Made by a program: the position numbers and the translations under genes
The notes under the pieces: generated by a model
The model's input: only the letters and a program-made list of their open reading frames with translations
What the model was told of the DNA's origin: nothing
Database searches by the model: none
Virus genome (UHGV): UHGV-0049545
Origin: a virus
Length of the DNA stretch: 59,013 nt
Direction: 5' to 3' (one strand)
In this document: positions 85 to 55,831 of the stretch, piece after piece
Layout of the letters: each line of letters starts with the position of its first letter
Position numbering within the stretch: the first letter of the stretch is position 1

Positions 85-192
85 TACCTCGTTTATGTTG
101 TTTCGTTGTCTGCGTATCCCCGCCGGGTGAGATAAATGTAATATGCACACGGAACGAGTGCAACCCCATAACCGGATTTATTTCATTTTTGC
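85..192. repeat. Copy A of a ~105-bp direct repeat (copy B at 56541-56642) covering the leftward promoter, its upstream flank and a long 5'UTR
   Basis: Aligned by eye, about 90% identical. Sequence outside the block is unrelated. Confidence 0.8.
135..163 (-). promoter_or_regulatory. Leftward sigma70-like promoter PL1: -35 TTGCAC (163-158), 17-nt spacer, -10 TACATT (140-135)
   Basis: Read on the minus strand: TTGCACtcgttccgtgtgcatatTACATT. The spacer carries the CGTTCCGTG / CGTGTGCA core shared with the rightward promoters. Confidence 0.6.
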
Positions 193-670: not shown

Positions 671-687
671 TCGTTCAGTGAAAACGA

Positions 688-716
688 TTGACACACGGAA
701 CGTATGCAACTACATT
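688..716 (+). promoter_or_regulatory. Early promoter P1: TTGACA (688-693), N17, TACATT (711-716), spacer ...CACGGAACGTATGCAAC
   Basis: Consensus -35, 17-bp spacer, reasonable -10. One of four near-identical copies. First gene ATG at 758. Confidence 0.7.
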
Positions 717-757
717 TCAGCGTGACCGATACGCAAATTTAACGACGGAGAATACCG

Positions 758-1135
758 ATGAACGACGCGATTATCCTGGATGACCTGACGCCGGCCATGA
801 TGACCATGGAGACGGACGTGGAACTGCCGTCAGGTATCCGGGCTAACAGTATCACTGGCAACCTGATCGGCCTCAAGCCGGGCGAGGTCTACGTTTATGC
901 GCAGGAGCTGGACAGCAGCAAGGCGCTGGTAGACCTGCAGACCGAAGCCACGGCGCTGCGCTACAAAATGCGTAACGGCGTGTCGTCTTCCCTGCGTAAC
1001 GCCAAACGGGCCTGCAATAGTCAGTTCTCACTGGAAACGGCGCTGGTCATGTACCCGTCGGGCCGTGCGTTTATCCAGGTGGCGATCAAGCGCGTTGATG
1101 ACGGCGCCGGCACCCCGGAAGACGACGAAGTTTAA
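758..1135 (+). CDS. hypothetical early protein, C-terminus ...PEDDEV
   Basis: First ORF downstream of P1; acidic C-terminal tail. Confidence 0.55.
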   Translation: MNDAIILDDLTPAMMTMETDVELPSGIRANSITGNLIGLKPGEVYVYAQELDSSKALVDLQTEATALRYKMRNGVSSSLRNAKRACNSQFSLETALVMYPSGRAFIQVAIKRVDDGAGTPEDDEV

Positions 1136-1194
1136 TTCTGTAGGACGCGGCACCTCTTTTTTGCCGTACCACCCTTTTCACCCGGAGACACCAC

Positions 1195-1644
1195 ATGACC
1201 ACGTCAGAAGCATTCGAAGAACTGGACCTTAGCGACGGCCGTGAAGCCACGATTGCTCGTCAGTACGGCTACGATGAGCAGCGCGGGTCCATCAGGGTTG
1301 AAAACCCGAATGGCGATATTGACGCTATCAGCCGGCTTACCCGTGATGATGCCATTGCGCTGATTGCTGCGCTGCAGCGGGCGTTCGATATCCCTGACCG
1401 CGCCGCCGAACTGGAACTGCTGCTGGAGATGCGCGAAGAGACGACCCTGAACCTCATGGAGAAGTCCGTCATGGCAGGCATCGCGAACATCATGTACGAG
1501 AACGGCCTGAAACGCGCCACCATCACCCCGCAGAACGTTATGTCCGGCTTTGTGCCATCGCTGTCGATCGACGTCAGCGTGCCGGGCGTCGTCATCTACA
1601 CCCTGAACGGAGAACCGCTCAATGGAAAACCCGACACCGAGTAA
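1195..1644 (+). CDS. hypothetical protein
   Basis: ORF with upstream GGAGA, same orientation as the operon. Confidence 0.5.
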   Translation: MTTSEAFEELDLSDGREATIARQYGYDEQRGSIRVENPNGDIDAISRLTRDDAIALIAALQRAFDIPDRAAELELLLEMREETTLNLMEKSVMAGIANIMYENGLKRATITPQNVMSGFVPSLSIDVSVPGVVIYTLNGEPLNGKPDTE

Positions 1645-1966
1645 TGCCGCGCTGGCGGTGAACCGCGTTGCGGCGCCGCGCAAACGACTCGACGCTGGCC
1701 CGGCGTTCCGCTCACTGGAAGACAAATACGCCGTCGCAATTTATGCCACCCATACAGGTTCGGCCATCGTAGGCAACCGCGGTACCGGCAATGTGCTGTT
1801 CAGCTTTGGCGATCATGCGCGAGCGAAGGGTGGAAAGGCCCAGGGGTCCGAACAGGTTAGCCAGATGATCCACTACATCATCGGGCTGCTGTACTGGGCC
1901 AACACCCACATGCCCACGCCGGAAGTCGCAGCCGTACTGGCTGACATCGCCGGCGAAAAACACTAA
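1622..1966 (+). CDS. hypothetical protein
   Basis: ORF overlapping the end of the upstream gene. Confidence 0.45.
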   Translation: MENPTPSNAALAVNRVAAPRKRLDAGPAFRSLEDKYAVAIYATHTGSAIVGNRGTGNVLFSFGDHARAKGGKAQGSEQVSQMIHYIIGLLYWANTHMPTPEVAAVLADIAGEKH

Positions 1967-1978
1967 GAAGGAAATCCC

Positions 1979-2284
1979 ATGTCAAATAAAGCCGACTATT
2001 TCGATATCCTTGTAGACCTGGCTCGCCAGGAGGCGGCAAAGGCTATCGAAAAATACCCGCAGCCGAATTACACCATGCTGAAATTCTCGGAAGAGGCAGG
2101 CGAGGTGATCAAGGGCGCAGTGCATTACGCGGAGGGCCGTGATACCTGGGTCCACGTCGAAGAAGAGATCGTGCAGACCCTGGCCATGCTAATCCGCTTC
2201 CTGCGTGAAGGTGATGGCGTCAATAAAATCTACCCGCCGAAAGACCTGCGCGATGCCATGCGAGGGAACCGTGATGCCTGTTAA
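1979..2284 (+). CDS. MazG-like nucleoside triphosphate pyrophosphohydrolase (all-alpha NTP-PPase)
   Basis: About 100 aa with an EEAGEV-type EExxE metal-binding motif typical of the MazG/HisE family; GAAGGAAAT SD. Confidence 0.6.
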   Translation: MSNKADYFDILVDLARQEAAKAIEKYPQPNYTMLKFSEEAGEVIKGAVHYAEGRDTWVHVEEEIVQTLAMLIRFLREGDGVNKIYPPKDLRDAMRGNRDAC

Positions 2285-2594
2285 CTATCGGATGGAATAC
2301 GCGCTGAAGGCGCGAGAGGCGATCGACGCGCTCGGCATTTCTGCCGTTATCAATATTCTGACGAAGCATATCGGCAAGCATTCTTCTGCTGAGATGACGG
2401 AAGCAGAGGTTATCGAAGCCACTAAAATTCTTGACTTTAAAATCACGCAGTCACTGGAATGGAATAACATCCGGGCAGAAGAATGGCGTAAAGAGCGTCA
2501 GGCGGCAGAGGAACGCGACCGCTGGAATGCACAGGTGGAGAAGCGCAAGGAAGACCGCCAGCGCCGCCGTAACGAAAAGAGAGCACGCGGATGA
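2274..2594 (+). CDS. hypothetical protein with K/R/E-rich C-terminus
   Basis: ATG 2274 behind GAGGGAACC SD. The longer ORF from 2205 would overlap the upstream gene by 80 nt. Confidence 0.45.
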   Translation: MPVNYRMEYALKAREAIDALGISAVINILTKHIGKHSSAEMTEAEVIEATKILDFKITQSLEWNNIRAEEWRKERQAAEERDRWNAQVEKRKEDRQRRRNEKRARG

Positions 2595-2923
2595 ATACCG
2601 AATTACTGCAGGCGTACGCGAAGACCCGCGCTGACCGTCTCGACCAGGTGCGCAGTAAGATCGCCATCCTGAACAACATTATCGCCGACATCGAGGATGA
2701 AGCGACCCGGGTGTATACCGAAGTCCTCGGCAACACGATGGTCGACCCTGACGCTGACGAAGGCGCCTTTGTCAAGGTCGATAAAGAGTATGCCGAAATG
2801 GCGGCAGACCTGCGTAGCGCCCGGGAGACGAACCGTGTGCTGCTGGCCCATCTAACCGCCGCCCTTGTGCGTGCGCCATTCCTGAATCTGTTTGCAAACG
2901 GAGATACCCCCAATGAAAGTTAA
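2591..2923 (+). CDS. hypothetical coiled-coil protein
   Basis: ATGA overlap with the upstream gene. Confidence 0.45.
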   Translation: MNTELLQAYAKTRADRLDQVRSKIAILNNIIADIEDEATRVYTEVLGNTMVDPDADEGAFVKVDKEYAEMAADLRSARETNRVLLAHLTAALVRAPFLNLFANGDTPNES

Positions 2924-3983
2924 AGGCTTTGAGAAAGTCATTATTCTGCATCTCGGCGCGCTCTTTGGCGCCGCAAACGCTGGCGAGAAGTCGGTAAAGA
3001 GCTTCCACCGCACGCTGCTGAACACGCCGAACATGGATGAAATGTCGGTCCATGAATTCGCCGCCGGCCGCGTGAGCGATCTGCTGGCGAAGCACGAAGT
3101 GAAAGACCCGATCGGCTATAAGACGATTGGCTTTGCGCCGTACGCGGACTATGTGGGCGGCAAGTTCGCCATGGGTATCCCCGGCACTAACGCGATCGTG
3201 CTGCAGGCCGAAAAGCGTGAACGCGTGCTGCCCGGCGTCAGCGTGCGCAACGAAGTGACGAAGCGTATGGACACCTGGCGCGAGAAAGAGATCGAAGGCT
3301 GGGAGCCGACCCGGAAAGACTGGGCGCAGCTGAAAGACGATGTCGAAGCCGAAATGCTGAAAACCGCGCCTATCCGCCCGACCCGCTACAACGTGATCAT
3401 CGCCGTCCCGTACGTCTATGTGTTCACCACCAGCGCCAAGACCTCCGAAGAGATCAACTCCCTGCTGCGTGCCGCATTCGGCACCTGGCCCGTGGAACCC
3501 CTGCTGATCAATGACTTCGTGCTGCGTCAGTCAATGGAGAAGGTCGTACGCGGCAACATCGATGGTGTCACCGGCGACGACTTCATCCACATCAAGCACG
3601 ATGACGGCGACGACGTGAAGTTCAAGGACATTGACATCCACAAGGACGAAGTGGTCCTCGACTACCTGGCGCGGCATTACACGGTTCGGGCGCTGAACAT
3701 GCGGATCGACGAAGGCGAGATGCGCCCGGGCGTGGGCAACGTGTTCTTCCGCCTGACCGACAAGGCGATCATCTCCGGGATCCACATCGGCGAGGCGGAC
3801 GTTGACGCCAACTATGAAGCCACCCTGGAACGCTACAACAATGACAGCGGCACGTTCCTGACCTACATGGCCAACCTGTTCCAGACGGTGCTGTCGCTGC
3901 AGGACGTCATTGACGTCTTTCGCGATAAGATGGACATCACGGTTGAGGTCGACGCGCAGCTGGAAGACGACGACGAGGTGTGA
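2913..3983 (+). CDS. rdgC: RdgC-like recombination-associated protein, C-terminus ...LEDDDEV
   Basis: The central region aligns by eye with E. coli RdgC: ...EKRERVLPG..., ...LKDDVEAEMLKTAPIRPTRYNVIIAVPYVYVFTTSAKTSEEINSLLRAAFGTWPVEPL versus RdgC ...[60 protein letters not shown]. ATG 2913 behind GGAGA. Confidence 0.55.
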   Translation: MKVKGFEKVIILHLGALFGAANAGEKSVKSFHRTLLNTPNMDEMSVHEFAAGRVSDLLAKHEVKDPIGYKTIGFAPYADYVGGKFAMGIPGTNAIVLQAEKRERVLPGVSVRNEVTKRMDTWREKEIEGWEPTRKDWAQLKDDVEAEMLKTAPIRPTRYNVIIAVPYVYVFTTSAKTSEEINSLLRAAFGTWPVEPLLINDFVLRQSMEKVVRGNIDGVTGDDFIHIKHDDGDDVKFKDIDIHKDEVVLDYLARHYTVRALNMRIDEGEMRPGVGNVFFRLTDKAIISGIHIGEADVDANYEATLERYNNDSGTFLTYMANLFQTVLSLQDVIDVFRDKMDITVEVDAQLEDDDEV

Positions 3984-3984
3984 C

Positions 3985-4212
3985 ATGGCAGGCCGTAAAC
4001 ACGCTAAACCGAATCCCCACATCGCCGAGCATAAACGCCTGCTTGGCGCTATGGCTGTCGGCGAGTCCTTCTTCGTGAGCGGCAAGCGGCCTGCGGACCT
4101 GGGCTACGTGCGGCGCCTCGGGTACCAGCTGGGGTATAAGCTGGCGATCCGCTGGGTGCTGCGCGACCCGATTTACGGCCGCATGGGATCCCGCGTCATG
4201 AGGGTGGGCTGA
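3985..4212 (+). CDS. hypothetical basic protein
   Basis: ATG 3985, coupled to the upstream stop via GAGGTGTGAcATG. Confidence 0.4.
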   Translation: MAGRKHAKPNPHIAEHKRLLGAMAVGESFFVSGKRPADLGYVRRLGYQLGYKLAIRWVLRDPIYGRMGSRVMRVG

Positions 4213-4213
4213 T

Positions 4214-4486
4214 ATGGGCTACCTGGCGAAGAAACGGACGGCGTACTGGCAGGACAAAAAGACGGGCCAGATCATCAAGACCCGTCAGCCCGAGTCCTAT
4301 ACGCCATGCCGCGAGTGGTTCATCTATTTCCGGGAAGTCCGGCTGCTGCATAACGCGGCCGCCGGGCAGGTCTGCGCAGAGGATGCCGGCACCTGCCTGT
4401 CGTACCTGGACGACCCGTACTGGACGGAAGTCGACCTGGAAACTTTCACCTACTGGGATTTGATTTATCGCAATCCTGACGTATAG
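4214..4486 (+). CDS. hypothetical protein
   Basis: ORF; last gene of operon 1. Confidence 0.45.
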   Translation: MGYLAKKRTAYWQDKKTGQIIKTRQPESYTPCREWFIYFREVRLLHNAAAGQVCAEDAGTCLSYLDDPYWTEVDLETFTYWDLIYRNPDV

Positions 4487-4534
4487 TGATCGGGACATGG
4501 GATGAATCTTCATGCTCGGTGTTCCACTGCATTA

Positions 4535-4567
4535 AAGCCCGGCGCGCTTTGCCCGGGCTTCTTTTTT
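4535..4567 (+). terminator. Rho-independent terminator ending operon 1 (AAGCCCGG-loop-CCGGGCTT, then TTTTTT)
   Basis: 8-bp GC stem plus a T6 run, immediately upstream of P2. Confidence 0.75.
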
Positions 4568-4582
4568 GCCTGCAGAAAGCGT

Positions 4583-4611
4583 TTGACACACGAATCGTGT
4601 TCAGCTACATT
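4583..4611 (+). promoter_or_regulatory. Early promoter P2: TTGACA (4583-4588), N17, TACATT (4606-4611); spacer ACACGAATCGTGT is a perfect palindrome
   Basis: Read directly; gene ATG at 4641. Confidence 0.7.
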
Positions 4612-4640
4612 TCTCAGGAGTCCACAAAAAGGAACATCCC

Positions 4641-5408
4641 ATGAAGAAGCACTTAATGTCGTTTGGCCGCTTTGACCAGAATCGAATCGGCAAACAGACC
4701 ATCTACATTTTCCCCCTCCCACACGGCCCGCGCTGCATCGTCCGCGTCGAATACGACCCGATCGAGGAAGAGACGGCGGTACGCATCCACAACACAGAGG
4801 AACGCAGCTGGCCGGATATCGCCGACTTCGTTCCGGACCTGTCAGAATGGTTCGGGCAGCTGTATCACGCCCTCTTCAACGAGCCGGACCCCCGCTTCAC
4901 CCGCAACGGCAAACAGGTCGTTTTTCCGGCCATCATCCTCGATGTAATTCTGCATGACCGCACCGACGGCAACGGGCAGGACGAAGGGTCCGCCGACCGC
5001 CTGGCGAAGATGCTGGAGGATTTCGACCTCATCGGTGCGCCGGCGCCACGCGATACTGTATGCGCGCTGATCATGTGCGTCATGCTGGAAGAGGAATACG
5101 CCGTCGGGTCGACCCGCTGTGACCTCTGGTGGCAGCGCTCATGGCTCCAGCGCGGCCTGCTGCGCTCCGGCCTGTGCAATCCCTACTCACACCCACGCCC
5201 GCCTCTCCGCGAGCTGGCCCAGGCGCCTCGCCAGTGGCACTGGGAACGCAATGGCATCGCGTCAGACCGTCCGGATGATAACTGGGCCATGATCGAGAAC
5301 TGCTTCAACCGGTCATTCCGTGCGGCGCTGGTAGTTGACGTGTGGCAACCGTGGGCGGTGAACGGCAACGCCCTGCAGCTGATCCGGGAAGAGGACATCG
5401 AAGTATGA
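4641..5408 (+). CDS. hypothetical protein, C-terminus ...EEDIEV
   Basis: ORF behind AAAGGAA SD. Confidence 0.5.
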   Translation: MKKHLMSFGRFDQNRIGKQTIYIFPLPHGPRCIVRVEYDPIEEETAVRIHNTEERSWPDIADFVPDLSEWFGQLYHALFNEPDPRFTRNGKQVVFPAIILDVILHDRTDGNGQDEGSADRLAKMLEDFDLIGAPAPRDTVCALIMCVMLEEEYAVGSTRCDLWWQRSWLQRGLLRSGLCNPYSHPRPPLRELAQAPRQWHWERNGIASDRPDDNWAMIENCFNRSFRAALVVDVWQPWAVNGNALQLIREEDIEV

Positions 5409-5812
5409 CCGCCAGCGCAGAAGACCGGGCAAAAGCGGACTGGCTGCGCCCGTACAAAGACCACCTGCTTTTCCCGGCGACCAGCATTGCTATCGAAGTG
5501 CATGGGCCGGAGAAGAAAGAGTGCCGGGATATCGCCGAGGCTATCGACATGATCGTAACGCTCATGCTGTGCATGAAAGAACACGGCAATGACAAGGCGG
5601 CGATCCAGTCCTGCGCGCAGGCGTTAAACCGCCGCGTGGAAGACCCGTACAACAAAGTTTTCCTGACAAAAGTAATGACGGCACTCATGCCCGACGCTGT
5701 CATCCGGACCCGGGTGAAAGAGATGGCCCAGCGGGACTGGAAATCCCAGCGTCAGATGATACGTGAAGGGGTATGGCCGGCGTGGATGATGGAGGACACC
5801 GATGGAAACTAA
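5405..5812 (+). CDS. hypothetical protein
   Basis: ATGA overlap with the upstream gene. Confidence 0.45.
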   Translation: MTASAEDRAKADWLRPYKDHLLFPATSIAIEVHGPEKKECRDIAEAIDMIVTLMLCMKEHGNDKAAIQSCAQALNRRVEDPYNKVFLTKVMTALMPDAVIRTRVKEMAQRDWKSQRQMIREGVWPAWMMEDTDGN

Positions 5813-6284
5813 CGGCCACAAAAACGCTATCCAGCAATCGGACCAGATGTTCTGTTCCTGGTGCGGGAAGACGTGGGATATTAATGACCCGTACCCGCCG
5901 GAGTGTTCGGAAGAACGCCATGCGACGACCGTTTGGTATACCGGAACCGTGAAAGGAAGTAGCGCCCGTTTTCCCGCGATACCACAAAACCTTCCACGCG
6001 ATGATTCAAATACGGCGCAGGCGTATTACCTGCAGCGCCGCGGAGTCGGCTTTGTGGTCTGGGCGAATGGCCCGAAAGAAGCGTATAACTACGCCGTACG
6101 CGTTGGGATGCGACCGACATACATGCGCCGCATCGATATCCCGGACCGCGCGTACGACGTGAAGACGCCGCGTGCGGAGATAAACCCGCTGACCCTGGAG
6201 CTGGTGCGCAGCCGTTACCCGAATTTCGGTGAGGTCATCACCCCAGTCCAGTTCGTGTCGCGACAGAAGGAAAAACGGAAATGA
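5802..6284 (+). CDS. hypothetical protein with N-terminal Cys4 (CxxC...C...C) motif
   Basis: ORF; putative zinc ribbon. Confidence 0.45.
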   Translation: METNGHKNAIQQSDQMFCSWCGKTWDINDPYPPECSEERHATTVWYTGTVKGSSARFPAIPQNLPRDDSNTAQAYYLQRRGVGFVVWANGPKEAYNYAVRVGMRPTYMRRIDIPDRAYDVKTPRAEINPLTLELVRSRYPNFGEVITPVQFVSRQKEKRK

Positions 6285-6604
6285 GCAGAGTTACCAACGT
6301 CGTAGTTATGTGCGATACCCTTACCGAGCATTACGGGGTATTCCTGCGGTCCGTTGACCGCTGGTTCCGGGAACATACCGGCACCAGTCTTCGTTCCGTA
6401 GGCCACATGGCCGGCGGCGATAAAAACATGGAATGCAGCGTCTCCATTGGTGCTTTCAACCACCTGGACGTGGATGGGTTTTTCAAAGCGCTCCCGGGTT
6501 TTGTCGAAACTAAACGGATGGACGCGGACAGCGGCTTCATCCTCGTAACCGCTACCACCCAGGAGAACGAAATCATCACATGGAGGCATCAAGTTGAGTT
6601 CTGA
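6281..6604 (+). CDS. hypothetical protein
   Basis: ATGA overlap. Confidence 0.45.
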   Translation: MSRVTNVVVMCDTLTEHYGVFLRSVDRWFREHTGTSLRSVGHMAGGDKNMECSVSIGAFNHLDVDGFFKALPGFVETKRMDADSGFILVTATTQENEIITWRHQVEF

Positions 6605-7307
6605 ATACGTTGACAACCTCATCGCGCTGAAAGCCCGGGAAGCGCATGACCTGAAAGAGATAGGCGACCAGTGGCGGACACCGGACTGGCTGTTCTTCGC
6701 GCTGGACAAGCTGTTCGGCCCGCTGGTGCTCGACCTGTTCACCGATGGCCAGAACGCCAAATGCCCGCGCTACTACACCGCCGAGGACAACGCGCTGCGC
6801 CAGGACTGGGCGGGCCGGCTGAAAAGGATACAGGCGGAACTGGAGGCCGAGGCGGAAGTGTACGACGTCGCCGATCACGTCCAGCGGGTATGGGGTTTCG
6901 CTAACCCACCGTACAGCCGTAACCGTGCGGCGGAAGTGCCGCTGACCGGCATGGTCAATATCATGGCCAAGGCGGAAGAGGAACGGAAGAAAGGCGCGGG
7001 TACGGTCTGGGTGATCAAAGCGGCAACCGCTGAAACATGGTGGCCCGATACCATCGCCACGCGCACCATATTCATCAAAGGGCGCATCGGTTTCGAACCG
7101 CCGGTATGGTTCAAAGCGAAGAAGGGCGCCGCTGGCGCAACGTCCGCGGGCTTCGGCGCCGCGATAGTCATCTTCGACCCGGAAGACGAAGAAAAACATG
7201 CCCCGGAGTACATCTCCCGGGAAGCGCTCATGGATATCGGGCTTCCATGGACCACGATGATGCAGGACGTCCGCGAGAAGTGGATCGCCCAGTGGGACGA
7301 GGTGTGA
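6594..7307 (+). CDS. phage-type DNA N6-adenine methyltransferase (Dam-like), TTG start behind GGAGG
   Basis: WRTPDWLFFALDKLFGPLVLDLFTD...CPRYYTAEDNAL and NPPYS match the phage N6A-methyltransferase family signature. Confidence 0.75.
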   Translation: MSSEYVDNLIALKAREAHDLKEIGDQWRTPDWLFFALDKLFGPLVLDLFTDGQNAKCPRYYTAEDNALRQDWAGRLKRIQAELEAEAEVYDVADHVQRVWGFANPPYSRNRAAEVPLTGMVNIMAKAEEERKKGAGTVWVIKAATAETWWPDTIATRTIFIKGRIGFEPPVWFKAKKGAAGATSAGFGAAIVIFDPEDEEKHAPEYISREALMDIGLPWTTMMQDVREKWIAQWDEV

Positions 7308-7308
7308 G

Positions 7309-7572
7309 ATGAAAGAAGTTCGTGTTCATAAACGTGAGGTCAAAACCATGAAATTAACCAAAACAGTAACCCGTAACGGCAAGATCACCGAAGTGAAAAC
7401 GTTCGACGTGGAAGTCCGCCGGGATGACCACGGCGTCAAACTATGGTGCGGCGATGACTGGTATCTGGACCAGAACAAAGTCGGGAAGACGATCAACCCA
7501 GACCCTTTCACCGAGGTCGTCTGGTCAGTCGGCGAAGAGGAAGGAAAGAATGCCAAAGCCAAACGTGTATAA
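7309..7572 (+). CDS. hypothetical protein
   Basis: Coupled via GAGGTGTGAgATG. Confidence 0.45.
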   Translation: MKEVRVHKREVKTMKLTKTVTRNGKITEVKTFDVEVRRDDHGVKLWCGDDWYLDQNKVGKTINPDPFTEVVWSVGEEEGKNAKAKRV

Positions 7573-7942
7573 CGATGGCGTAATTGGCGAGCAGGTAAGC
7601 CTGGCGGACGGGTATGACCCGGACGCCTGGTACTACCATCCCGTCTTCTTCCACGCCAGTAATAACTACGATGGGTCCAATCTCGACGCGCTGCTGGACG
7701 TATACAACCTGGAGCTGAACGGCTTCTACATGGGGGAAGGCTATCCGCGAGCGCTGGAAGTACCGCTGCGAGTGGCGTACGACAACGCGAATACGGACGA
7801 GATGCGCGCCTCTGTGCTGCGTACCTGGATGCCGCGCCCGACGTCGCTTAACGGGTCCGGCTGGTTCCTCCTGTATACGGCGCCGACGGAATTCGATGGT
7901 CCGTATGCCTGTTTCGCGAGGGTCAAAGATGGCCAGAAATAA
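7550..7942 (+). CDS. hypothetical protein
   Basis: ATG 7550 behind AAGGAAAG. Confidence 0.45.
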   Translation: MPKPNVYNDGVIGEQVSLADGYDPDAWYYHPVFFHASNNYDGSNLDALLDVYNLELNGFYMGEGYPRALEVPLRVAYDNANTDEMRASVLRTWMPRPTSLNGSGWFLLYTAPTEFDGPYACFARVKDGQK

Positions 7943-8102
7943 ATACGTGGCTATGTGTTGCTACTGCAAAAAGCCAGTGCCGGCCGGCGCCGGGTATCTT
8001 GAAAGGTCTGCGTCCGGAACGTGGACTACGATCCATGCCGATTGTGCGGTCAAAAGACGCGAAGAGAAGAAGGCGCAGAATGGCATACATAAACGGCTCT
8101 AA
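7929..8102 (+). CDS. small Cys-rich protein (CCYCKK...C)
   Basis: Short ORF, tentative. Confidence 0.3.
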   Translation: MARNKYVAMCCYCKKPVPAGAGYLERSASGTWTTIHADCAVKRREEKKAQNGIHKRL

Positions 8103-9264
8103 ACCGTTCCACTATTACAACGAGTGGGACGCTAAAACCGCAGCATGGTTGCGTGAATTAATAAAACGTGGCCATCTTCAAGAAGGAATCGTCGATGAAC
8201 GATCAATCACCGAAGTCGCCCCGGAAGACCTCAAAGGCTTCGCCCAACACCATTTCTTCGCCGGGATCGGAGGCTGGCCGCTGGCCCTTAAACTCGCCGG
8301 ATGGCCGGCGTATGCGCCAGTGTGTACGGGAAGTCCGCCGTGCCAGCCTTTTAGTGTGGCTGGAAAACGAGGCGGGCGGGACGACTCCCGTCACCTGGCT
8401 CCGGCCTTTCTCGACCTCATCGCAGAGCTGCGACCTCCAGCTATTTTTGGCGAACAGGTTAGCGCAGCAATTAAAGAACTGTGGCTCGATGCTCTATTCG
8501 TTGAGCTGGAAGACGAAGGCTACACCTGCGCATCGGCAGTATTGCCAGCGTGCAGCGTCGGCGCCCCGCACAAAAGAGATCGCCTTTTCTTTGGCGCTAT
8601 CGACCTGGCCGACCTCGTCAGCGACGGACTGGAAAGGCGGCTACGCGGGTGGGCGGATAAGGAATGGCAAACTATCCGTCGACCGGCTGGACGTGGCGGC
8701 GCAGCTGGCAACATATCCAACGCCGAACACCTGCAACGATCGCAGCCCATGTCCGGACTACGCGCGGGCGGGATGGTTCCGGGAGGACGGGACGAAGAAG
8801 CACATCCGCCTGCAGGACATTGCGGGGATGGCGGGCTGGCCAACGGTGACGACGATAGACAACAACCAGGTTCGCGGGGAGGCGGGCGCAGCGGGCCATC
8901 CGGATCGGTCGACGACCCTGGGCGGCGCGGTTCGTCTTGCCAGCTACCCGACACCGCTGACGGTACCGGACTCACCGGCATCGAGGGGGCAGCTATCGGG
9001 GAGCTACCGGAAGGGCATGGAGAAGTGTACGCCTGTTCCGGACTTCCCGATCAGGATCACGGCGCATGGTCAAATGCTGACTGGCTGCTATGCCGGGATG
9101 GGAAGTTCAGGCCCGTTGAATCCGGCACATTCCCGCTGGCTAATGGGGTACCCGCCCGAGTGGTGCGACTGCGCGGATACGGAAACGCAATCGTCCCTCA
9201 AGTCGGTGCCCAGTTCATCCGAAACTTTATGGTGGGAACTGTAGATTTTCTGGAAAACGTTTGA
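8080..9264 (+). CDS. DNA (cytosine-5) methyltransferase; motifs I (FFAGIGG), IV ([12 protein letters not shown]), VIII (HKRDRLFF) and X (GNAIVPQV) are in this frame, but the target-recognition domain and motif IX ([10 protein letters not shown]) are in the +1 frame (8591-9166)
   Basis: Motifs read directly in two frames. The annotated ORF reads through but is low-complexity G/R/D/P-rich over 8600-9160. Confidence 0.6.
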
Positions 9265-9289
9265 CACACAAAACGTGTGCAGCTAGTAT
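9261..9289 (+). promoter_or_regulatory. Early promoter P3: TTGACA (9261-9266), N17, TAGTAT (9284-9289); spacer CACAC-aaaac-GTGTG palindrome
   Basis: Read directly; overlaps the 3' end of the methyltransferase gene; next ATG at 9325. Confidence 0.7.
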
Positions 9290-9324
9290 TCTAATCGAAC
9301 AACAAAACAACCTGGAGATATACC

Positions 9325-10689
9325 ATGTCAGAGAATAAAGAAATGCCGGCCAAAAACAGAATCGTTCACCCGAGAACCGAACTCCGCTGGCCGCCCTTCC
9401 ATAGCAATTTATTGAATGAAGCGTTCCTGACCTCGGTTAAAGGCGTCTTCGATGAGATGCTTGGTCGTCTTTACTACGGCGCGGATAAGCGCAAAGGCTG
9501 GGCGGCAGCTGAACCATGGCGAGAATTGACCGAGCATGAATGCCGCACCTGCATTCGCGATTCAATAGCAAAAGGCAAGCTGATCGACGCGATGAACTAC
9601 ATCATGTTCGCGCATCTCAACGGACATAAACTCCTTTCGCTGCGTAACCCGTCCATTGACGAACAGGTCAGCATTGATTCGCAAATGCGTGACCAGCTGG
9701 CGAACGCGCTGGGCGTCACAGGCCGCAGCTGGGACGAAATGCTGGCCATGGCAGGCGCGGTGAATGCGCAGGCATTCGAACATGAAAAAACGATTGAGGC
9801 GATCGCGAAAGAACTAAAACTCGACCTGGATGCCCCGGCAGATACGATTATCTCCACCGTCCATTTCCTAGTTAAGCGCTGCCAGTCCGCCGTAACGGAA
9901 GTCAGCATTACCGGATGTACTGACCCGGATGTACTGGAGAACGTTGCAAAGATGATTAAGGCGAATACTCAACCGGCGGGCTTCGCGTGGGATGGTCGTA
10001 AAGTCGGTACGTCGCCCGCTATGGCCGCGCCGTACGGCGTTACGGCGTCTAAAAAACGGCAGCAATACGAATTGTCGATGGAAGCCGATGACTCCGGTAT
10101 CCCTTCGCCGCTGTTTATCTTCCGCAGCAAGAAAGATCGGGATGACTATCTGCCGCTGCTGCGCACCTTCCTCGGCGCGCTGGAACAGGCGGCGTACGGT
10201 AAAGGCCGTGAGCGTCACGCTAACGACCTGCCGTTTGTAGAACAGCCGATCCTGACCATGGCGCATATGCTGGACAGCGACGCCGGCCTGGCGCAGCAGG
10301 TTATCAAGAAAACCGTTGAAGCGCGGTCGCTGCCGACTAAACAGGCCCGGATCAATGAACTTCGCGGGACGCTGGTGTACGCCGCAGCGATGATCCTGTT
10401 CGAAGAGATGTATGGCAAGCCGGACGCGAAACCCAGTTCGACATCCCGTTCAGTGGTTCGGGTGAAAATTTCGGACCTCCAGCCCGGCATGGTTATCCGC
10501 TTCGACCGTGATTACATTGCGGTGGTAGAAGGGCTAATAGGCACTCAAATCGGTGACGACGGCAAGATTAACTTCTGGTGGTCCGTGCGACGTGAACGAC
10601 GCGGCGTACCCAGTAAAGGCGTTGTATTCGGGCATGACACAACGTTTAACGTGGACAATGACCCTGACGAGTTAGACGGAGCATTGTAA
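9325..10689 (+). CDS. hypothetical 454-aa protein
   Basis: Long ORF behind GGAGATATACC SD. Confidence 0.55.
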   Translation: MSENKEMPAKNRIVHPRTELRWPPFHSNLLNEAFLTSVKGVFDEMLGRLYYGADKRKGWAAAEPWRELTEHECRTCIRDSIAKGKLIDAMNYIMFAHLNGHKLLSLRNPSIDEQVSIDSQMRDQLANALGVTGRSWDEMLAMAGAVNAQAFEHEKTIEAIAKELKLDLDAPADTIISTVHFLVKRCQSAVTEVSITGCTDPDVLENVAKMIKANTQPAGFAWDGRKVGTSPAMAAPYGVTASKKRQQYELSMEADDSGIPSPLFIFRSKKDRDDYLPLLRTFLGALEQAAYGKGRERHANDLPFVEQPILTMAHMLDSDAGLAQQVIKKTVEARSLPTKQARINELRGTLVYAAAMILFEEMYGKPDAKPSSTSRSVVRVKISDLQPGMVIRFDRDYIAVVEGLIGTQIGDDGKINFWWSVRRERRGVPSKGVVFGHDTTFNVDNDPDELDGAL

Positions 10690-10907
10690 TGAAAGTCCTG
10701 ATGTCTGACCTCAAGCCGGGAATGCGGGTCATCATGAAGAACCGCATCGTCGAGATAGTCGACTTAGCGAGAACGCACCGCGCGGCAAATGGACGAACGG
10801 TATATTACTGGAAGTCCGTAAGTGAACCACCGCGCATGGGCCTTAACCATTTTGTCGGTTGCGGCGATTTGATCGTCGAAGTGGAGGACAAGCATGTCAA
10901 TGCGTGA
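10689..10907 (+). CDS. hypothetical protein
   Basis: ATGA overlap. Confidence 0.4.
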   Translation: MKVLMSDLKPGMRVIMKNRIVEIVDLARTHRAANGRTVYYWKSVSEPPRMGLNHFVGCGDLIVEVEDKHVNA

Positions 10908-11214
10908 AACATGCATGGCGATTGCCGCGAAATACGCCGCAATGCCGCCGGACCCGGATTACCCGCTCTATGGGGATATGGTCCGCTTCCGGGATAAATA
11001 CAATGGCCGGGAATACTCCGGCATCGTCCTCGGGCATTGCGATGGCATTCCGATTTTCTGGAAGCCATGGCGGGTGGAAGTGCGGGTATGCCACACCGAC
11101 GGTACCGTAGCGTTTCCACCGCTGCCGGTGATGCATGTGGAAAAAGACGAAATTATTAAAGTGACCCGCGCCGACGGCAGTGGGGAATGGACCAAAGAAG
11201 GGGAACACCCATGA
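10894..11214 (+). CDS. hypothetical protein
   Basis: ORF in operon. Confidence 0.4.
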   Translation: MSMRETCMAIAAKYAAMPPDPDYPLYGDMVRFRDKYNGREYSGIVLGHCDGIPIFWKPWRVEVRVCHTDGTVAFPPLPVMHVEKDEIIKVTRADGSGEWTKEGEHP

Positions 11215-11537
11215 AAGTTAAACCCGATATCATCATTGTCCACGGCCCAAAGGGCTGCGGCAAGACATGTAACAGGTACCGTATTGCCGACTATTTTGGG
11301 ATGAACGTTATCCGGGATGATCAGTGTTGCAGTGAATGGCCATGCCCTATTTCGCTGCGTAAATCGCAGAGGGTTTTGTACCTGTGTACGACGGAAGAAA
11401 TGTTTGACCCCAGGACCATCGAGCGTATGGGTCGGTATGTAGCGGAAGGTTGGGTCATCAGGGCAATCGCATATGATAAGGCAGCGGAGGATTACCAGGG
11501 CGCAATGCGTGAAATTTGCAGGGCCGGTCACAGATAA
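11211..11537 (+). CDS. small P-loop NTPase/kinase-like protein (GPKGCGKT Walker A)
   Basis: Walker A at residues 9-16; GAAGGGGAA SD. Confidence 0.5.
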   Translation: MKVKPDIIIVHGPKGCGKTCNRYRIADYFGMNVIRDDQCCSEWPCPISLRKSQRVLYLCTTEEMFDPRTIERMGRYVAEGWVIRAIAYDKAAEDYQGAMREICRAGHR

Positions 11538-11588
11538 ATACGCTGTGATGGCACCTGACCCGAATGGCTTAGACGAGGATTTTTAATT

Positions 11589-12302
11589 ATGAAAGCAAAA
11601 CCCGAACATATCGGCAAGATCCACCTCGTATTCGACGTGGAAAACCTGTCATGCAAGACCGACGGCTATCTTCTGTCATTCGCGTGCGTCATGTTCCACG
11701 CGGACGAAGGCTGGTTCCGCGAGTTCAGCGTTACGTTAGCCAAGGGTGCCAGTAGACGCCGCCCTGGCGATATTGACCCTGAAACGGTTAAGTGGTGGGT
11801 CAGTCAGGCGATGCAAAACCCGGAAGCCGCAATGGAAGCGTTTTTCGCGAAGGAGGATGCTGAACCTGTTTCGATCGATGACGCGCGTATCACCTTCATG
11901 AGCTGGGTACACCAGGCGCTTAAAGAATACATGTATTCCCCGGGTCAGGATGAACTGGGTTACATGGGCCTCTATCAAGCATGGGAAGAATTCCACCCGC
12001 AGGTTTGGGGGCATGCACCACGCGTGGATATCATCCAACTGGAAAACGGGCTGTTTGGCGGAGAGGGAAAAGGTCCGTGGGACTTTCGGGATGAAAACGA
12101 TACCCGCACGCTAATGAACCGATGGAAACGCCTGCGACCGGGAGAAGTCGGCTTGTGGGAACTCGCTGACGCACAGGCGGAAGCGCGCTGCCCGTTAGCG
12201 CAACACACTGCCATACGGGATGCCTACCGCCAGGCGTATATGGTGATTATCGATCATGGCTGGCTGGAAAGATTCCCTCGGCTAAAACCTGAACCTGAAT
12301 AA
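11589..12302 (+). CDS. DnaQ-like DEDDh 3'-5' exonuclease
   Basis: Exo I LVFDVEN and Exo III H-x4-D (HTAIRDAYRQAY). Confidence 0.55.
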   Translation: MKAKPEHIGKIHLVFDVENLSCKTDGYLLSFACVMFHADEGWFREFSVTLAKGASRRRPGDIDPETVKWWVSQAMQNPEAAMEAFFAKEDAEPVSIDDARITFMSWVHQALKEYMYSPGQDELGYMGLYQAWEEFHPQVWGHAPRVDIIQLENGLFGGEGKGPWDFRDENDTRTLMNRWKRLRPGEVGLWELADAQAEARCPLAQHTAIRDAYRQAYMVIIDHGWLERFPRLKPEPE

Positions 12303-12314
12303 CTTAAAAAACGT

Positions 12315-12343
12315 TTGACATACGATTCGTGTGCAACTAATAT
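12315..12343 (+). promoter_or_regulatory. Early promoter P4: TTGACA (12315-12320), N17, TAATAT (12338-12343); spacer ACGATTCGT palindrome
   Basis: Read directly. Confidence 0.7.
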
Positions 12344-12345
12344 TA

Positions 12346-12372
12346 CTCCCGAAGGCAACGACGGGAGTTTTT
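12346..12372 (+). terminator. Terminator-like hairpin CTCCCG-N10-CGGGAG + TTTTT overlapping the P4 start site and containing the SD of the 12377 gene
   Basis: 6-bp GC stem plus a T5 run. It would form in read-through RNA from operon 3 but not in P4-initiated RNA. Confidence 0.5.
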
Positions 12373-12376
12373 CATT

Positions 12377-12889
12377 ATGAGCCAGATTGTTCACCGGATT
12401 GACCAGCAGATCGTTTCGAACGTGGTTAACCGCCACCACCAGTGGTTCCAGTATTACTACGAACTGAAAGCCGCGGTTGCCGCATTAATGGACGGCGAAC
12501 GCGAATACGATATCAGCTGCAGCACCTTCTACGGACTGGAAGAACTGGGGCGCTATCGCGGAATTTGTCGGGTATTCCATATCCCATATGGCATTTATCG
12601 CAGCGGCCATAGATTAGCGGATAAGCCAACGGCCAAAACTGCACCACCGCGTTACCCGTTGCTTATGGAATGGGGATTTGTGCTGGACCGTAAGATCGTC
12701 AGCGCGAAAGAGTTCATTTCCGCCTATGAAACCGGGATGAGCGCCAGGGGGCGGCAGTTAAGCCCCGGGTATATGGCGGTAAAAGAATTCGCCATGATGA
12801 GCGAGCCACCGAATTACCGGGCGATTACCGATCACCTGGGCATTAAGTCAGTAATACGCATCACTTTTAACATGAACTACGAGGGTTAA
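12377..12889 (+). CDS. hypothetical protein
   Basis: ORF behind GGGAG. Confidence 0.5.
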   Translation: MSQIVHRIDQQIVSNVVNRHHQWFQYYYELKAAVAALMDGEREYDISCSTFYGLEELGRYRGICRVFHIPYGIYRSGHRLADKPTAKTAPPRYPLLMEWGFVLDRKIVSAKEFISAYETGMSARGRQLSPGYMAVKEFAMMSEPPNYRAITDHLGIKSVIRITFNMNYEG

Positions 12890-12892
12890 CCC

Positions 12893-13240
12893 ATGATCAA
12901 AGAAAGCGAGAAAGGTTACGAAGTACCGGTACCCGGCGCGCAGGAATGTATCCATGCCCGTACGCTGGAAGAAGCGGACGGTGTGCTGGCGGGCCTGCAG
13001 GGCGCTACGGAAAAAAGCAACCCGTACAGCGACCCAACTAACGGTACCGGGGCGAAATGCCGGGCATACTGGCGCTGGGAGGCGGGCCGTAAGAAGGCGG
13101 AAGAGTACATCGAGTCGTTGCCGCTGGAGGGCGACAAGACGAACCGCCGCACCGGATTTATCTGCTGCCTGCTGTCTGCGCTGTTCGTCATCGCCGCCAT
13201 CCTGGCAGCCATGGGCGTCCTGCCTAACTGGAGCCTGTAA
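12893..13240 (+). CDS. hypothetical protein with C-terminal transmembrane anchor
   Basis: C-terminal stretch FICCLLSALFVIAAILAAMGVL. Confidence 0.45.
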   Translation: MIKESEKGYEVPVPGAQECIHARTLEEADGVLAGLQGATEKSNPYSDPTNGTGAKCRAYWRWEAGRKKAEEYIESLPLEGDKTNRRTGFICCLLSALFVIAAILAAMGVLPNWSL

Positions 13241-13242
13241 CG

Positions 13243-13452
13243 ATGGCCAGTAAGCGCAGACTGCGCCGGAAGTCATGCGAAGGGAAGCAGCGTTATCCGG
13301 ACATCCCGTCCGCTATGGCAGGCATCAGGCATGTCCAGCGGACGTACGGGTACAGCGGGCCGATGGATGCCTACCACTGCAAACTGTGTGGCAAGATCCA
13401 CATCGGCCACCGGAAAGGAATTGGCTCACATCGCCCCATGGGGAGGAAATAA
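13243..13452 (+). CDS. small basic Cys/His-rich (zinc-ribbon-like) protein
   Basis: C12, C46, C49 and several His; very basic termini. Confidence 0.4.
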   Translation: MASKRRLRRKSCEGKQRYPDIPSAMAGIRHVQRTYGYSGPMDAYHCKLCGKIHIGHRKGIGSHRPMGRK

Positions 13453-13453
13453 G

Positions 13454-14137
13454 ATGCGCGCAAAAGACCGGCATATAAAGCCGCATTTCACGGTAAACGG
13501 GCAGATCTGGTTCGCCGAAAAAGACCTGGACCCGCAGTATTTTGAGTTCTCTAAACACCCGTGCGCCCGTGTGTGGTTCGGACCGGAAGGTATTCGTCGC
13601 CTGATCGACGTGTATAACTGGTGGAAAAAGAAAGACCCGGAAAACGCCCGGATAACCGATGCCATGTTGCTCCGCCATTGCGATGCTTACCAGTTGGTAT
13701 GCGGGTATGGCCGCGCGAAGTACGGCGTTGTGCTCCGCGACCCGGTGTCTATTTTCATCCGGTATCCGGGCAGCGTGCATAGCCGTAATTGGCTAAACAG
13801 GAAGATACCGCACATGTCAAAAGACCAACGTGCAAACGCTAAACACTATCTCTTATCGGGGTATTGCCGCGTATCTAATCAGCACATGATAATCTCGCGC
13901 ATAGACCGCCCGGACTGGAGAGAGGTCTTAGCGGTTCACTTCTGCCCTCACGACCCGGAAGAAGGGATGGATCGAACTTACTCGGACGGCGCCGCAGATT
14001 ACTATCGTCGCTGCCTGTCGAAAGACAAACTGACGTTGAAGGACAAGGCGTTATACCAAATGTTCCCGGGGTCCGGTGGCGGGCATAGTCACTTCATCCC
14101 GTTATGCGAGGAATTCGACGATGTTCAAAGTGCATGA
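13454..14137 (+). CDS. hypothetical protein
   Basis: ATG behind GGGAGGAAA. Confidence 0.5.
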   Translation: MRAKDRHIKPHFTVNGQIWFAEKDLDPQYFEFSKHPCARVWFGPEGIRRLIDVYNWWKKKDPENARITDAMLLRHCDAYQLVCGYGRAKYGVVLRDPVSIFIRYPGSVHSRNWLNRKIPHMSKDQRANAKHYLLSGYCRVSNQHMIISRIDRPDWREVLAVHFCPHDPEEGMDRTYSDGAADYYRRCLSKDKLTLKDKALYQMFPGSGGGHSHFIPLCEEFDDVQSA

Positions 14138-14420
14138 ATCTGTCATCCCCCACGATATCCAGCGGAAGATAAACGAGGCCCAGTGGGACTTCATGGCCAA
14201 TATGGTCGCCGATACGGTTGCCGCGTATGGCGAGTTAGCGAAGGCGAAGGGCCATGAACGGGTTAACGCAGTAGTGACCGGGCAAACGACTTGCCTGGTG
14301 GACATGGTAAACGCAAAAACGCTGGTGCGGGTCCACGTGTCCTGCCTCATGGATGAAATCACTATCGATGTTCAGAGTAACATCGGCCACCCCAAAAACT
14401 TCAAAGGAATTAAGGCATGA
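14121..14420 (+). CDS. hypothetical protein
   Basis: ORF. Confidence 0.45.
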   Translation: MFKVHESVIPHDIQRKINEAQWDFMANMVADTVAAYGELAKAKGHERVNAVVTGQTTCLVDMVNAKTLVRVHVSCLMDEITIDVQSNIGHPKNFKGIKA

Positions 14421-15181: not shown

Positions 15182-15184
15182 AGA

Positions 15185-15385
15185 ATGCTGAATGACATCA
15201 TGTTAGCGGTGGTCTGGATTCTGGGTATGGCGCTCATGGCCGGCATAACGTCAGAGGACGAGTCAGTCGGTCGGTTCTTCGCGGTTATCTTTTGGCCGCT
15301 GGCGATAATGCTGGTCTTAATCCAGTGGGGATGGGACGAGTTCAAATACCGGATGCGCCAGCGGCGTAAACGCAAATCCCAGTAA
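15185..15385 (+). CDS. small membrane protein (2 TM helices)
   Basis: Hydrophobic; basic C-terminus. Confidence 0.4.
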   Translation: MLNDIMLAVVWILGMALMAGITSEDESVGRFFAVIFWPLAIMLVLIQWGWDEFKYRMRQRRKRKSQ

Positions 15386-15418
15386 CGAAAAAGCCCGGGA
15401 AACCGGGCTTACTTTTTG
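15386..15418. terminator. Bidirectional rho-independent terminator (AAAAAGCCCGGgaaaCCGGGCTTacTTTTT) between the converging rightward early and leftward late units
   Basis: 8-bp stem flanked by an A-run and a T-run. Confidence 0.75.
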
Positions 15419-50013: not shown

Positions 50014-50047
50014 AGTTAAATCCTCGTTCGGTTAATTTGGGTTTGTC

Positions 50048-55683: not shown

Positions 55684-55696
55684 GATAAAACCCCTT

Positions 55697-55822: not shown

Positions 55823-55831
55823 ACATACCCC

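Follow-up and report, generated by a model that had tools for sequence, protein, structure and literature searches.

A conserved dyad within the promoters of a chi-like Klebsiella phage as a candidate operator for a DNA-binding protein

Background

Core promoters with built-in operators are known from the OR and OL regions of lambdoid phages (lambda, 434, P22), in which dyads of 14 to 19 bp lie over the -35 element and spacer of strong sigma-70 promoters and serve small dimeric helix-turn-helix (HTH) proteins (Cro and CI) as binding sites, so that one protein controls divergent promoters. Here we describe a repeated promoter module with a dyad in its spacer from the virus genome UHGV-0049545, a stretch of 59,013 nucleotides that is referred to throughout as the window. 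The module is like OR and OL in these respects, and the protein that may bind it is predicted to have the same fold, but there is one putative operator per promoter instead of the OR1 to OR3 series, and the sites are distributed over six promoters across about 20 kb and an array next to the cohesive end site (cos).

Other described systems share some of these features. The C1 protein of phage P1 maintains lysogeny and has asymmetric 17-bp operators at many dispersed promoters; the module described here resembles the C1 regulon in placing one operator sequence at many dispersed promoters (six over about 20 kb, plus the array), but its site is symmetric, the candidate binder is predicted to be XRE-like, and the likely role is a lytic, temporal shut-off. 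C proteins and XRE antitoxins (C.AhdI, C.BclI, HigA, HipB) are likewise small XRE-fold dimers on palindromes that overlap promoters, yet these act on their own operon through one or two adjacent sites, whereas six distant operons are proposed here and the candidate's own promoter has no clear dyad. The promoter-early stem-loop (PeSL) cassettes of T4-type phages, reportedly described by Arbiol and colleagues in 2010, are said to be repeated early-promoter modules at the borders of variable blocks; the present modules also have homology breakpoints at their edges, and one of them (P4) has a stem-loop. They differ in that the stem-loop occurs in only one of four rightward modules and in the symmetric operator, which is reportedly no part of the PeSL description.

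Over its first 13 kb the window matches the Klebsiella phages PIN2, SAKp02, Soft, Seifer and KPN N137 at about 93% identity, and by the record taxonomy of its closest matches it is a Yonseivirus (Casjensviridae), that is, a chi-like Klebsiella phage related to Salmonella phage Chi. Chi-like phages are common therapy candidates against Klebsiella and Salmonella, and the control of their gene expression is little described. The group is reported to be virulent, and the Chi genome note only mentions two putative regulators, gp1 and gp3 (PMC4342425); no CI or integrase module was identified in the window. Phage JS26 of Serratia/Prodigiosinella (Casjensviridae, Dunedinvirus) is like the window in having a leftward cos-proximal cluster, then a rightward DNA-metabolism cluster, and a gp3-like gene before the primase gene; it is unlike it in that most of its promoters have other spacer sequences, and the JS26 studies define temporal classes and report no promoter or operator motif or other cis elements. 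No description of the promoter-operator module of chi-like phages was found in the searchable literature, some subscription papers being outside reach. In kind, the module is a conventional phage promoter with an embedded operator; what is new is its conservation across the family, the divergent layout of four plus two promoters, and the promoter-less array on the cos side.

The promoter module and its dyad

Four rightward (P1 to P4) and two leftward (PL1 and PL2) promoter modules were recognised in the window, and by their agreement with sigma-70 sequence rules all six are likely to be real promoters. The module consists of an A-rich UP-like stretch, a -35 element, a 17-bp spacer and a -10 element, and the dyad that takes up most of the spacer is, on balance, probably an operator through which a dedicated DNA-binding protein acts on them. 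Spacer positions are numbered from the first T of the -35 element, so that the dyad axis falls on position 12. The modules, dyads and operons are as follows.

680 to 721, plus strand: P1 module, with UP-like stretch GAAAACGA, -35 TTGACA (688-693), spacer CACGGAACGTATGCAAC and -10 TACATT (711-716)
692 to 706, plus strand: P1 dyad, CACACG-GAA-CGTATG
758 to 4486, plus strand: P1 operon, the first gene of which encodes a 125-amino-acid (aa) DUF7609 protein
4575 to 4616, plus strand: P2 module, with -35 TTGACA (4583-4588), spacer CACGAATCGTGTTCAGC and -10 TACATT (4606-4611)
4587 to 4601, plus strand: P2 dyad, CACACG-AAT-CGTGTT, including the perfect 13-bp palindrome ACACGAATCGTGT
4641 to 9264, plus strand: P2 operon
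9253 to 9294, plus strand: P3 module, with -35 TTGACA (9261-9266), spacer CACAAAACGTGTGCAGC and -10 TAGTAT (9284-9289)
9265 to 9279, plus strand: P3 dyad, CACACA-AAA-CGTGTG
9325 to 12302, plus strand: P3 operon
12307 to 12348, plus strand: P4 module, with -35 TTGACA (12315-12320), spacer TACGATTCGTGTGCAAC and -10 TAATAT (12338-12343)
12319 to 12333, plus strand: P4 dyad, CATACG-ATT-CGTGTG
12377 to 15385, plus strand: P4 operon
135 to 172, minus strand: PL1 module, with -35 TTGCAC (163 to 158), a 17-bp spacer and -10 TACATT (140 to 135)
144 to 162: PL1 dyad, the 19-bp TGCAC-N9-GTGCA, which takes in most of the -35 element
79 (ATG) across the window junction to 56676, minus strand: PL1 operon
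56584 to 56621, minus strand: PL2 module, with -35 TTGCAC (56612 to 56607) and -10 TACATT (56589 to 56584)
56593 to 56611: PL2 dyad, TGCAC-N9-GTGCA
56534 to 54847, minus strand: PL2 operon

The initial annotation had reported four near-identical promoters at 688, 4583, 9261 and 12315, each with a perfect -35 element, a 17-bp spacer and a fair -10 element and each heading one operon. All four copies were found at these coordinates in the form TTGACA-17-TAnnnT, and they sit 29 to 41 nt before the start codons at 758, 4641, 9325 and 12377, each of which opens a run of co-oriented genes; with the leftward promoters included, the distance to the first start codon of the gene block is 29 to 55 nt. 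The four are thus real, and the set is larger than was claimed, comprising six promoters plus the array. The -35 element of P3 overlaps the stop codon of the upstream methylase open reading frame (ORF), which ends at 9264, and no terminator precedes P3.

A degenerate pattern of the module matches four sites at zero mismatches and gains none when up to three mismatches are allowed, against a shuffle expectation of 0.01, and P1 to P4 are the best sigma-70-like sites between 1 and 17000, each scoring 10 of 12. Generic promoter-like sites are not enriched within that interval (9 seen versus 9.8 expected). A weight-matrix search of the phage, which the initial annotation had proposed, gave 57.6 to 62 bits for P1 to P4 and 8.6 bits for the next best site in the genome, using a 42-nt matrix trained on the same four sites that it scores. 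The -35 element matches the consensus at 6/6 positions in P1 to P4 (TTGACA) and at 4/6 in PL1 and PL2 (TTGCAC), the spacer is 17 bp in 6/6 promoters, and every -10 element matches at 4 of 6 positions, including A2 and T6.

The claim that the spacer forms a dyad was borne out. In the dyad CACACG-N3-CGTGTG, positions 5 to 10 are complementary to positions 19 to 14 about the axis at position 12, and sites with at most one mismatch to it number 6 in the genome versus 0.23 expected. At positions 5 to 19 the dyad overlaps the last two bases of the -35 element and most of the spacer. The ideal form of the site would be TGCACACG-N3-CGTGTGCA, with its centre about 24 bp upstream of the predicted start of transcription. 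The two-fold symmetry, half-site centres about one helical turn apart and overlap with the core promoter are those of an operator for a dimeric HTH protein. This geometry appears to favour repression over activation; in particular, the spacer, in spite of the dyad within it, is already at the optimal 17 bp in 6/6 promoters and not at the over-long 19 to 20 bp that a MerR-type activator has to untwist, which makes activation of this type unlikely.

The leftward promoters, which were said earlier to share the core of the rightward ones, do so as TTGCAC-17-TACATT at 163 to 135 and 56612 to 56584. They sit in a duplicated block of about 100 bp and have the fullest dyad, a complete 19-bp palindrome that is offset by 1 bp relative to both hexamers and still intact. 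Exact copies of TGCAC-N9-GTGCA number three (PL1, PL2 and 54630) versus 0.1 expected.

Operator-like dyads beside cos

The 12-nt cohesive end of Chi is GGTGCGCAGAGC (PMC4342425). In the window this sequence is present once, exact, on the minus strand at 54266-54277, which is taken as cos; the window is therefore a complete, circularly permuted genome. The dyads near cos in the window and in its relatives are the following.

54513 to 54717: array of operator-like dyads without a -10 element, noncoding, with cos (54266-54277) on one side and the PL2 operon's terminator on the other
54513: array member, TGAAC-N9-GTGCA
54564: array member, CACCCG-CCC-CGTGTG(CA)
54630: array member, TGCAC-N9-GTGCA, exact
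54700: array member, TGCAA-N8-GTGCA
Seifer: two dyads, one at 57828 and the other at 57944
Chi: GATATACGCGGCGTGCGT, present four times within 59147-59345
Enc34: two dyads
PibeRecoleta: at least two dyads
JC01: three copies of TGA(C/T)ACAC-N5-7-ATGTGTCA

The degenerate fragments that the initial annotation had seen at 54570-54720 are therefore real and are better termed an operator-like dyad array beside cos, which in the window was counted as three to four dyads. Such dyads occupy the same noncoding cos-side position in every genus examined, each in its own half-site flavour; in Chi, for example, the array half-site TGATATACG, when reverse-complemented, gives exactly the right arm CGTATATCA of the promoter at 54171. 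The dyad thus exists independently of promoter context, and because the copies beside cos are promoter-less, a protein-binding site is favoured over a feature read by RNA polymerase. This is the strongest argument for the former.

Conservation across chi-like phages

The search for the motif in relatives, also proposed earlier, found the same modules in Yonseivirus, Chi, Enc34, PibeRecoleta and JC01. Within Yonseivirus, P1 to P4 are nearly invariant and syntenic in 7/7 loci, even where the upstream flank is unrelated. After gene exchange, homology resumes about 12 to 15 nt upstream of the -35 element (P3 in Seifer, P1 in L002 and the flanks of P4); at P3 of Seifer, for instance, the upstream flank is unrelated and homology runs from about 14 nt before the -35 element. 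Since homology restarts just upstream of the -35 element, the module is a conserved unit at mosaic borders. Beyond Yonseivirus, the divergent promoter arrangement is as in the window.

Chi: six promoters (four one way, two the other), TTGAC(A/G) YACG-YCG-CGTRTA
Enc34: six promoters (four plus two), TTGACA YACG-YGR-CGTGTA
PibeRecoleta: six promoters (four plus two), TTGACA CACG-YCR-CGTATGTA
JC01: seven promoters (four plus three), TTGACA CAC-N5/6-RGTGTRTA

Conservation was measured on a set of 29 promoters from five genera. The spacer half-sites are kept across genera as ACAC at positions 6-9 and GTGT at 15-18, and single positions are conserved as strongly as the -10 element (A8 in 28/29, C9 in 26/29, G15 in 25/29, T16 in 29/29 and T18 in 28/29). 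Information content is mirror-symmetric about position 12, the values being 1.37, 0.94, 1.61, 1.37, 0.67 and 0.46 for one arm, 0.37 for the central position and 0.57, 0.64, 1.28, 1.79, 0.98 and 1.61 for the other arm, and the consensus bases at 6-11 are complementary to those at 18-13 in 6/6 pairs. Across individual promoters, 77.8% of cells pair on axis 12 versus 8 to 12% when the partner is slid by 1 or 3. Covariation between the arms is not above that of shuffles (0.198 versus 0.180, with 101/500 shuffles as high). Symmetry without extra covariation fits conserved half-sites read by a protein better than a hairpin.

A promoter of the same phages that lacks the dyad serves as a control. Ahead of the gp4 homologue, the window has TTGACA-CGCGATGCAGCAATGGC-CATACT (50091 to 50063, read leftward) and Chi has TTGACA-GTGATTCGGCGTTTGGGC-CATACT; the hexamers are kept, the spacers are unrelated and the dyad is absent. 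A pattern scan of IMG/VR found the module nearly confined to chi-like contigs, and the few other matches look like chance or an unrelated promoter family. The same scan returned the unrelated-looking loci L036, L047, L051 and L069 (4 to 145 kb), which have the identical sequence GAAAGAAAGTAC TTGACA TACGGGTCGTATTGTTA TATAAT; it fits the search pattern, occurs once per returned stretch and probably belongs to a different phage group.

Candidate binding proteins

The protein put forward here as operator-binding is the homologue of Chi gp3, one of the two annotated Chi regulators.

50243 to 50524, plus strand: gp3 homologue, 93 aa, directly upstream of the primase gene, with a predicted lambda-repressor/Cro-like HTH fold

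Homologues of gp3 were found with tblastn in 142 phage records, in every chi-like genus found. The best AlphaFold model has a pLDDT of 92, the other four models being near 50, and C.AhdI, C.BclI, HigA and HipB are among the best structural matches to the predicted fold. A profile search gave only a weak match, to the TetR-type HTH of MtrR (E 0.065). The putative recognition helix, Y-x-T-L-L-W-x-x-x-N, keeps its Y, T, W and N where the ACG-N3-CGT core is shared; in JC01 and JS26, which have different spacers as well, these positions are changed. In the leader of gp3, ACACGC(G/A)CACA is conserved immediately ahead of the Shine-Dalgarno sequence (window 50215-50236), and the Enc34 leader TTTACACACGCACATGTAC nearly copies the operator TTGACACACGCGGCATGTAC. 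Taken together with the contrary points given below, the assignment of gp3 as the operator-binding protein is tentative, and rather less probable than the existence of an operator.

The initial annotation had named the 93-aa HTH protein, a zinc-ribbon protein at 13243 and the 53146 protein as possible regulators. The first is plausible as a candidate only, and the other two did not hold up. For the 69-aa zinc-ribbon protein, neither a Chi homologue nor a match to a DNA-binding family was detected. The 204-aa ORF at 53146-53760 is an insert absent from Chi and Seifer: this slot, that of gp1, holds non-homologous proteins in Chi, Seifer and the window and cannot encode a shared regulator. The ORF itself (minus strand) has no family match and lies in an AT-rich island at 52-54 kb (GC 0.49 versus 0.56); with unrelated HTH proteins in its place in Chi (gp1) and Seifer (gp1), it looks like a replaceable gene of the moron type.

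Several further candidates were set aside. The product of 56676-56888, a "putative DNA binding protein" in the Soft annotation, is a hydrophobic, membrane-like sequence; the conserved 75-aa product of 3986-4212, which follows the exonuclease, resembled a winged helix on inspection and has a confident alpha-beta model and no HTH match; and JS26 gp30, an essential winged HTH protein, has no detectable homologue in the window. Comparison of 19 proteins of the early and regulatory regions with Pfam and PHROG gave nothing useful.

Timing and proposed mode of action

In JS26, strand-specific RNA sequencing and transposon sequencing assign gp01-13/14, the leftward cluster near cos, to an early class (5 min), gp15-45, the rightward cluster, to a middle class (20 min) and the structural genes to a late class; the replication cluster, to which the gp3-like and primase genes belong, is middle-late and essential (PMC8754663; preprint 10.64898/2025.12.19.695335). 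The positional homologue of gp3 in JS26 is gp83, inside this middle-late essential cluster. Transferred by synteny, P1 to P4 would drive a middle block and PL1 and PL2 an early block; the label "early" that the initial annotation had given to the rightward region is therefore doubtful. DNA entry order, as suggested by the JS26 authors, may contribute to the early-to-middle order, and the operator would be better suited to a common shut-off.

A model in keeping with these data begins with host sigma-70 holoenzyme, which would recognise all six promoters upon cell entry; given a consensus -35 element (or, in PL1 and PL2, one that is near consensus), an optimal spacer and an acceptable -10 element, these should fire unaided. 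A dimeric, sequence-specific phage protein would then bind the palindrome near -24 and occlude the -35 element and spacer, so that the six operons would be turned down together once the binder has accumulated. The likeliest binder would be the Cro/XRE-like 93-aa protein, made with the replication genes and thus later than its proposed targets, and the cos-side array would probably bind the same protein. The earlier proposal that a single protein switches all operons is supported to the extent that conserved symmetric half-sites fit one co-regulator, and of the two directions that it allowed, off or on, the geometry favours off.

In its fullest form, the model would have one small Cro-like protein reading the palindrome at six promoters and at the array, with the array as a functional part of the circuit conserved across Casjensviridae; this combination is unlikely. 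The array could be a nucleation or sink site that times the global shut-off, or it could link shut-off with what happens at cos, for example end protection, circularisation or packaging. By analogy with JS26, the genome end with the cos array is suggested to enter the cell first. If true, the operator would help to explain the shut-down of the early and middle programmes. The module also offers a predicted regulon (six operons plus the array), a named candidate protein and strong, probably switchable promoters for engineering.

Alternative explanations

Several observations weigh against a dedicated operator-binding protein or against gp3 in that role. Purines and pyrimidines alternate in the half-sites, so that complementarity remains at 61 to 65% when the partner is slid by 2 and the symmetry is in part compositional. 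JS26, the sole relative with RNA sequencing, has other spacers in most of its promoters, and its temporal classes transfer solely by synteny; one JS26 promoter, that before gp15, does have a perfect dyad (TTGCAC-TCGTCGCGAGTATCGAC-TAGATT). With the same operator on the early (PL) and the middle (P1 to P4) class, the operator cannot alone explain the difference in timing. As for gp3, it has no Pfam match and falls in a PHROG family of no known function, and its leader in the window is without a proper dyad. A natural gene exchange bears on gp3 most directly. Seifer (MH817999) is a clean mosaic in which only the gp3-like gene and the primase gene (933-3793) have Chi-type alleles, 52% and 61% identical to window 50243-53109, nearly all other shared genes being about 57 to 100% identical to those of the window, mostly above 80%. 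Seifer gp3 is 84% identical to that of Chi and 52% to that of the window, and the Seifer promoters are identical to those of the window. By these alignments gp3 does not track the genus-specific outer and central positions of the operator, and it could be the binder only through the core half-sites that both genera share, A-Y-A-C-G and C-G-T-R-T.

Of the explanations that do without a phage regulator, the one that survives best is that the dyad is an intrinsic promoter feature, either a set of RNA polymerase contacts or a flexible, supercoiling-sensitive purine-pyrimidine tract that suits freshly injected linear DNA, the copies being kept alike by descent and gene conversion. The alternating half-sites (ACACACG, CGTGTG) with their pairing after a slide by 2, and covariation no higher than in shuffles, are as this explanation would have them; near-consensus promoters need no factor, and the regulator search pinned down none. 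It is nevertheless quite unlikely, since cos-side dyads occur without a -10 and often without a -35 element in every genus examined, mirror symmetry about one axis is unexpected for RNA polymerase contacts, the orthologous sigma-70 promoter before the gp4 homologue has lost spacer conservation, and the PL1 and PL2 dyads are shifted by 1 bp against the hexamers and yet intact.

A host transcription factor of the Enterobacterales might instead bind the dyad and sense the state of the host, no phage protein being involved. The core A-Y-A-C-G / C-G-T-R-T is alike in phages of Klebsiella, Salmonella, Hafnia and Providencia, the gp3 swap in Seifer left the operators unchanged, and the search for a phage DNA-binding protein gave no secure assignment. 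This explanation is very unlikely all the same: the central triplet and outer positions vary by phage genus and JC01 is without the inner CG pairs, which suggests a phage-borne, co-evolving factor. We know of no enterobacterial regulator with this consensus. As a weak negative, a scan of 185,579 species genomes, one per species, found the perfect 19-bp palindrome in no Enterobacterales among about 80 listed of 98 matching stretches, the listed matches coming from unrelated taxa. In the same scan, TGCACACG-N3-CGTGTGCA recurs many times within single genomes of Cloacimonadota metagenome-assembled genomes and Sanguibacter (loci L072-L151), suggesting an unrelated repeated element.

It has been proposed for T4-type cassettes that promoter modules act mainly as recombination linkers at the borders of exchangeable blocks, and the dyad could then be incidental. 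Homology among yonseiviruses does break exactly at the upstream edge of the module (P3 of Seifer, P1 of L002, the flanks of P4), PL1 and PL2 fall within a duplication of about 100 bp, and P4 carries a conserved stem-loop. As the main purpose of the modules this carries little probability, as it leaves unexplained both the promoter-less cos arrays and a mirror symmetry maintained across five genera, between which the modules are too diverged to recombine; linker function is, moreover, compatible with the operator model and so no true alternative to it.

A nucleic-acid hairpin, whether a cruciform or single-stranded promoter of the N4 type or an RNA processing site in read-through transcripts, was rejected on pair counts as exceedingly improbable, for although P2 has a perfect 6-bp stem with a 3-nt loop and P2 to P4 lie within a continuous rightward transcription unit, cells are unpaired in 14/29 promoters at 5-19, 9/29 at 7-17 and 9/29 at 10-14, two-sided changes occur only at pairs 10-14 (2 sequences) and 11-13 (7 sequences) with overall covariation not above that of shuffles, a virion RNA polymerase gene is annotated in none of these 58-60-kb genomes, and the PL2 operon has its terminator before the cos-side array.

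Among the explanations considered, an operator bound by a dedicated DNA-binding protein is preferred for the dyad.

Genome layout, terminators and other elements

The gene blocks of the window and the signals that bound them are listed below.

54847 to 56534 and 56676 across the window junction to 79, minus strand: two leftward operons, rightward of cos
500 bp: intergenic, divergent region between the leftward operons and the rightward block
758 to 15385, plus strand: rightward block of about 45 small genes
15409 to 50013, minus strand: lysis, structural and replication genes
50243 to 53109, plus strand: rightward pair of the 93-aa protein and primase
4535 to 4566, plus strand: intrinsic terminator at the end of the P1 operon, shortly before P2, -17.6 kcal/mol, z -2.6, with a U-run after it
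12345 to 12373, plus strand: hairpin (12345-12368) and U5 at the end of the P3 block, overlapping the P4 start region, -12.8 kcal/mol
15391 to 15410: bidirectional terminator closing the P4 block
Chi, reverse complement, 47000 and 44945: counterparts of the ACTCCCGAAGG...CGGGAG hairpin after P4
Enc34 (L029), reverse complement, 8054 and 6726: counterparts of the same hairpin

The terminator that had been placed at 4535 and the terminator-like hairpin placed at 12346 are both present, with the energies given in the list. The second forms a compact overlap of terminator and promoter. In P3 read-through RNA the hairpin at 12345 has -12.8 kcal/mol, so that a terminator is formable there, whereas RNA begun about 7 nt past the P4 -10 element is without the 5' arm and has -3 kcal/mol. 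The sequence ACTCCCGAAGG...CGGGAG with its U-run, right after the P4 -10 element (12344-12373), is kept after the homologous promoters of Chi, Enc34 and PibeRecoleta.

At 403-665, the divergent region that separates PL1 from P1 has three complete direct repeats and a partial one, of the form CTTACTTGG(C/G)CGATC(T/C)AGC(G/A)GGCTGAAA, which are iteron-like. Within Yonseivirus the inner part of this repeat has two coordinated alleles: the window and Seifer have GGCCGATC, whereas Soft, N98, L004 and L007 have CAAAAAG. Their distribution is not that of gp3, and it points to a binding protein that co-evolves with the repeat, for instance one acting at an origin or as a regulator. Across cos from the dyad array, at 53790-54030 (also Chi 1-613 and Seifer 1-553), GTAACAAAGG or GTTACAAG recurs in several direct and inverted copies, which keep their position in Chi and Seifer despite a different adjacent gene, and these repeats are a better candidate than the dyad array for a terminase (cosB-like) or origin site. 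The direct repeats at the genome end of JS26 are unrelated.

An acidic tail, (E/D)DD(E)V, is shared by three unrelated proteins, namely the DUF7609 protein that comes first after P1 (758-1135), an SSB-like 206-aa protein (47207-47827, minus strand) and the 130-aa gp4 homologue (49621-50013, minus strand), and may be a docking motif. By position and sequence motif, the counterpart of the DUF7609 protein is JS26 gp28, which is essential there. Lastly, the leader of the gp4 homologue (50040-50093) contains GTCGTGTTGACGG, which is kept in the window, SAKp02, Seifer, Chi and Enc34, and which JC01 and PibeRecoleta have in slightly changed form. Together with the -35 element of the gp4-homologue promoter, it makes up an 8-bp inverted repeat in the window.

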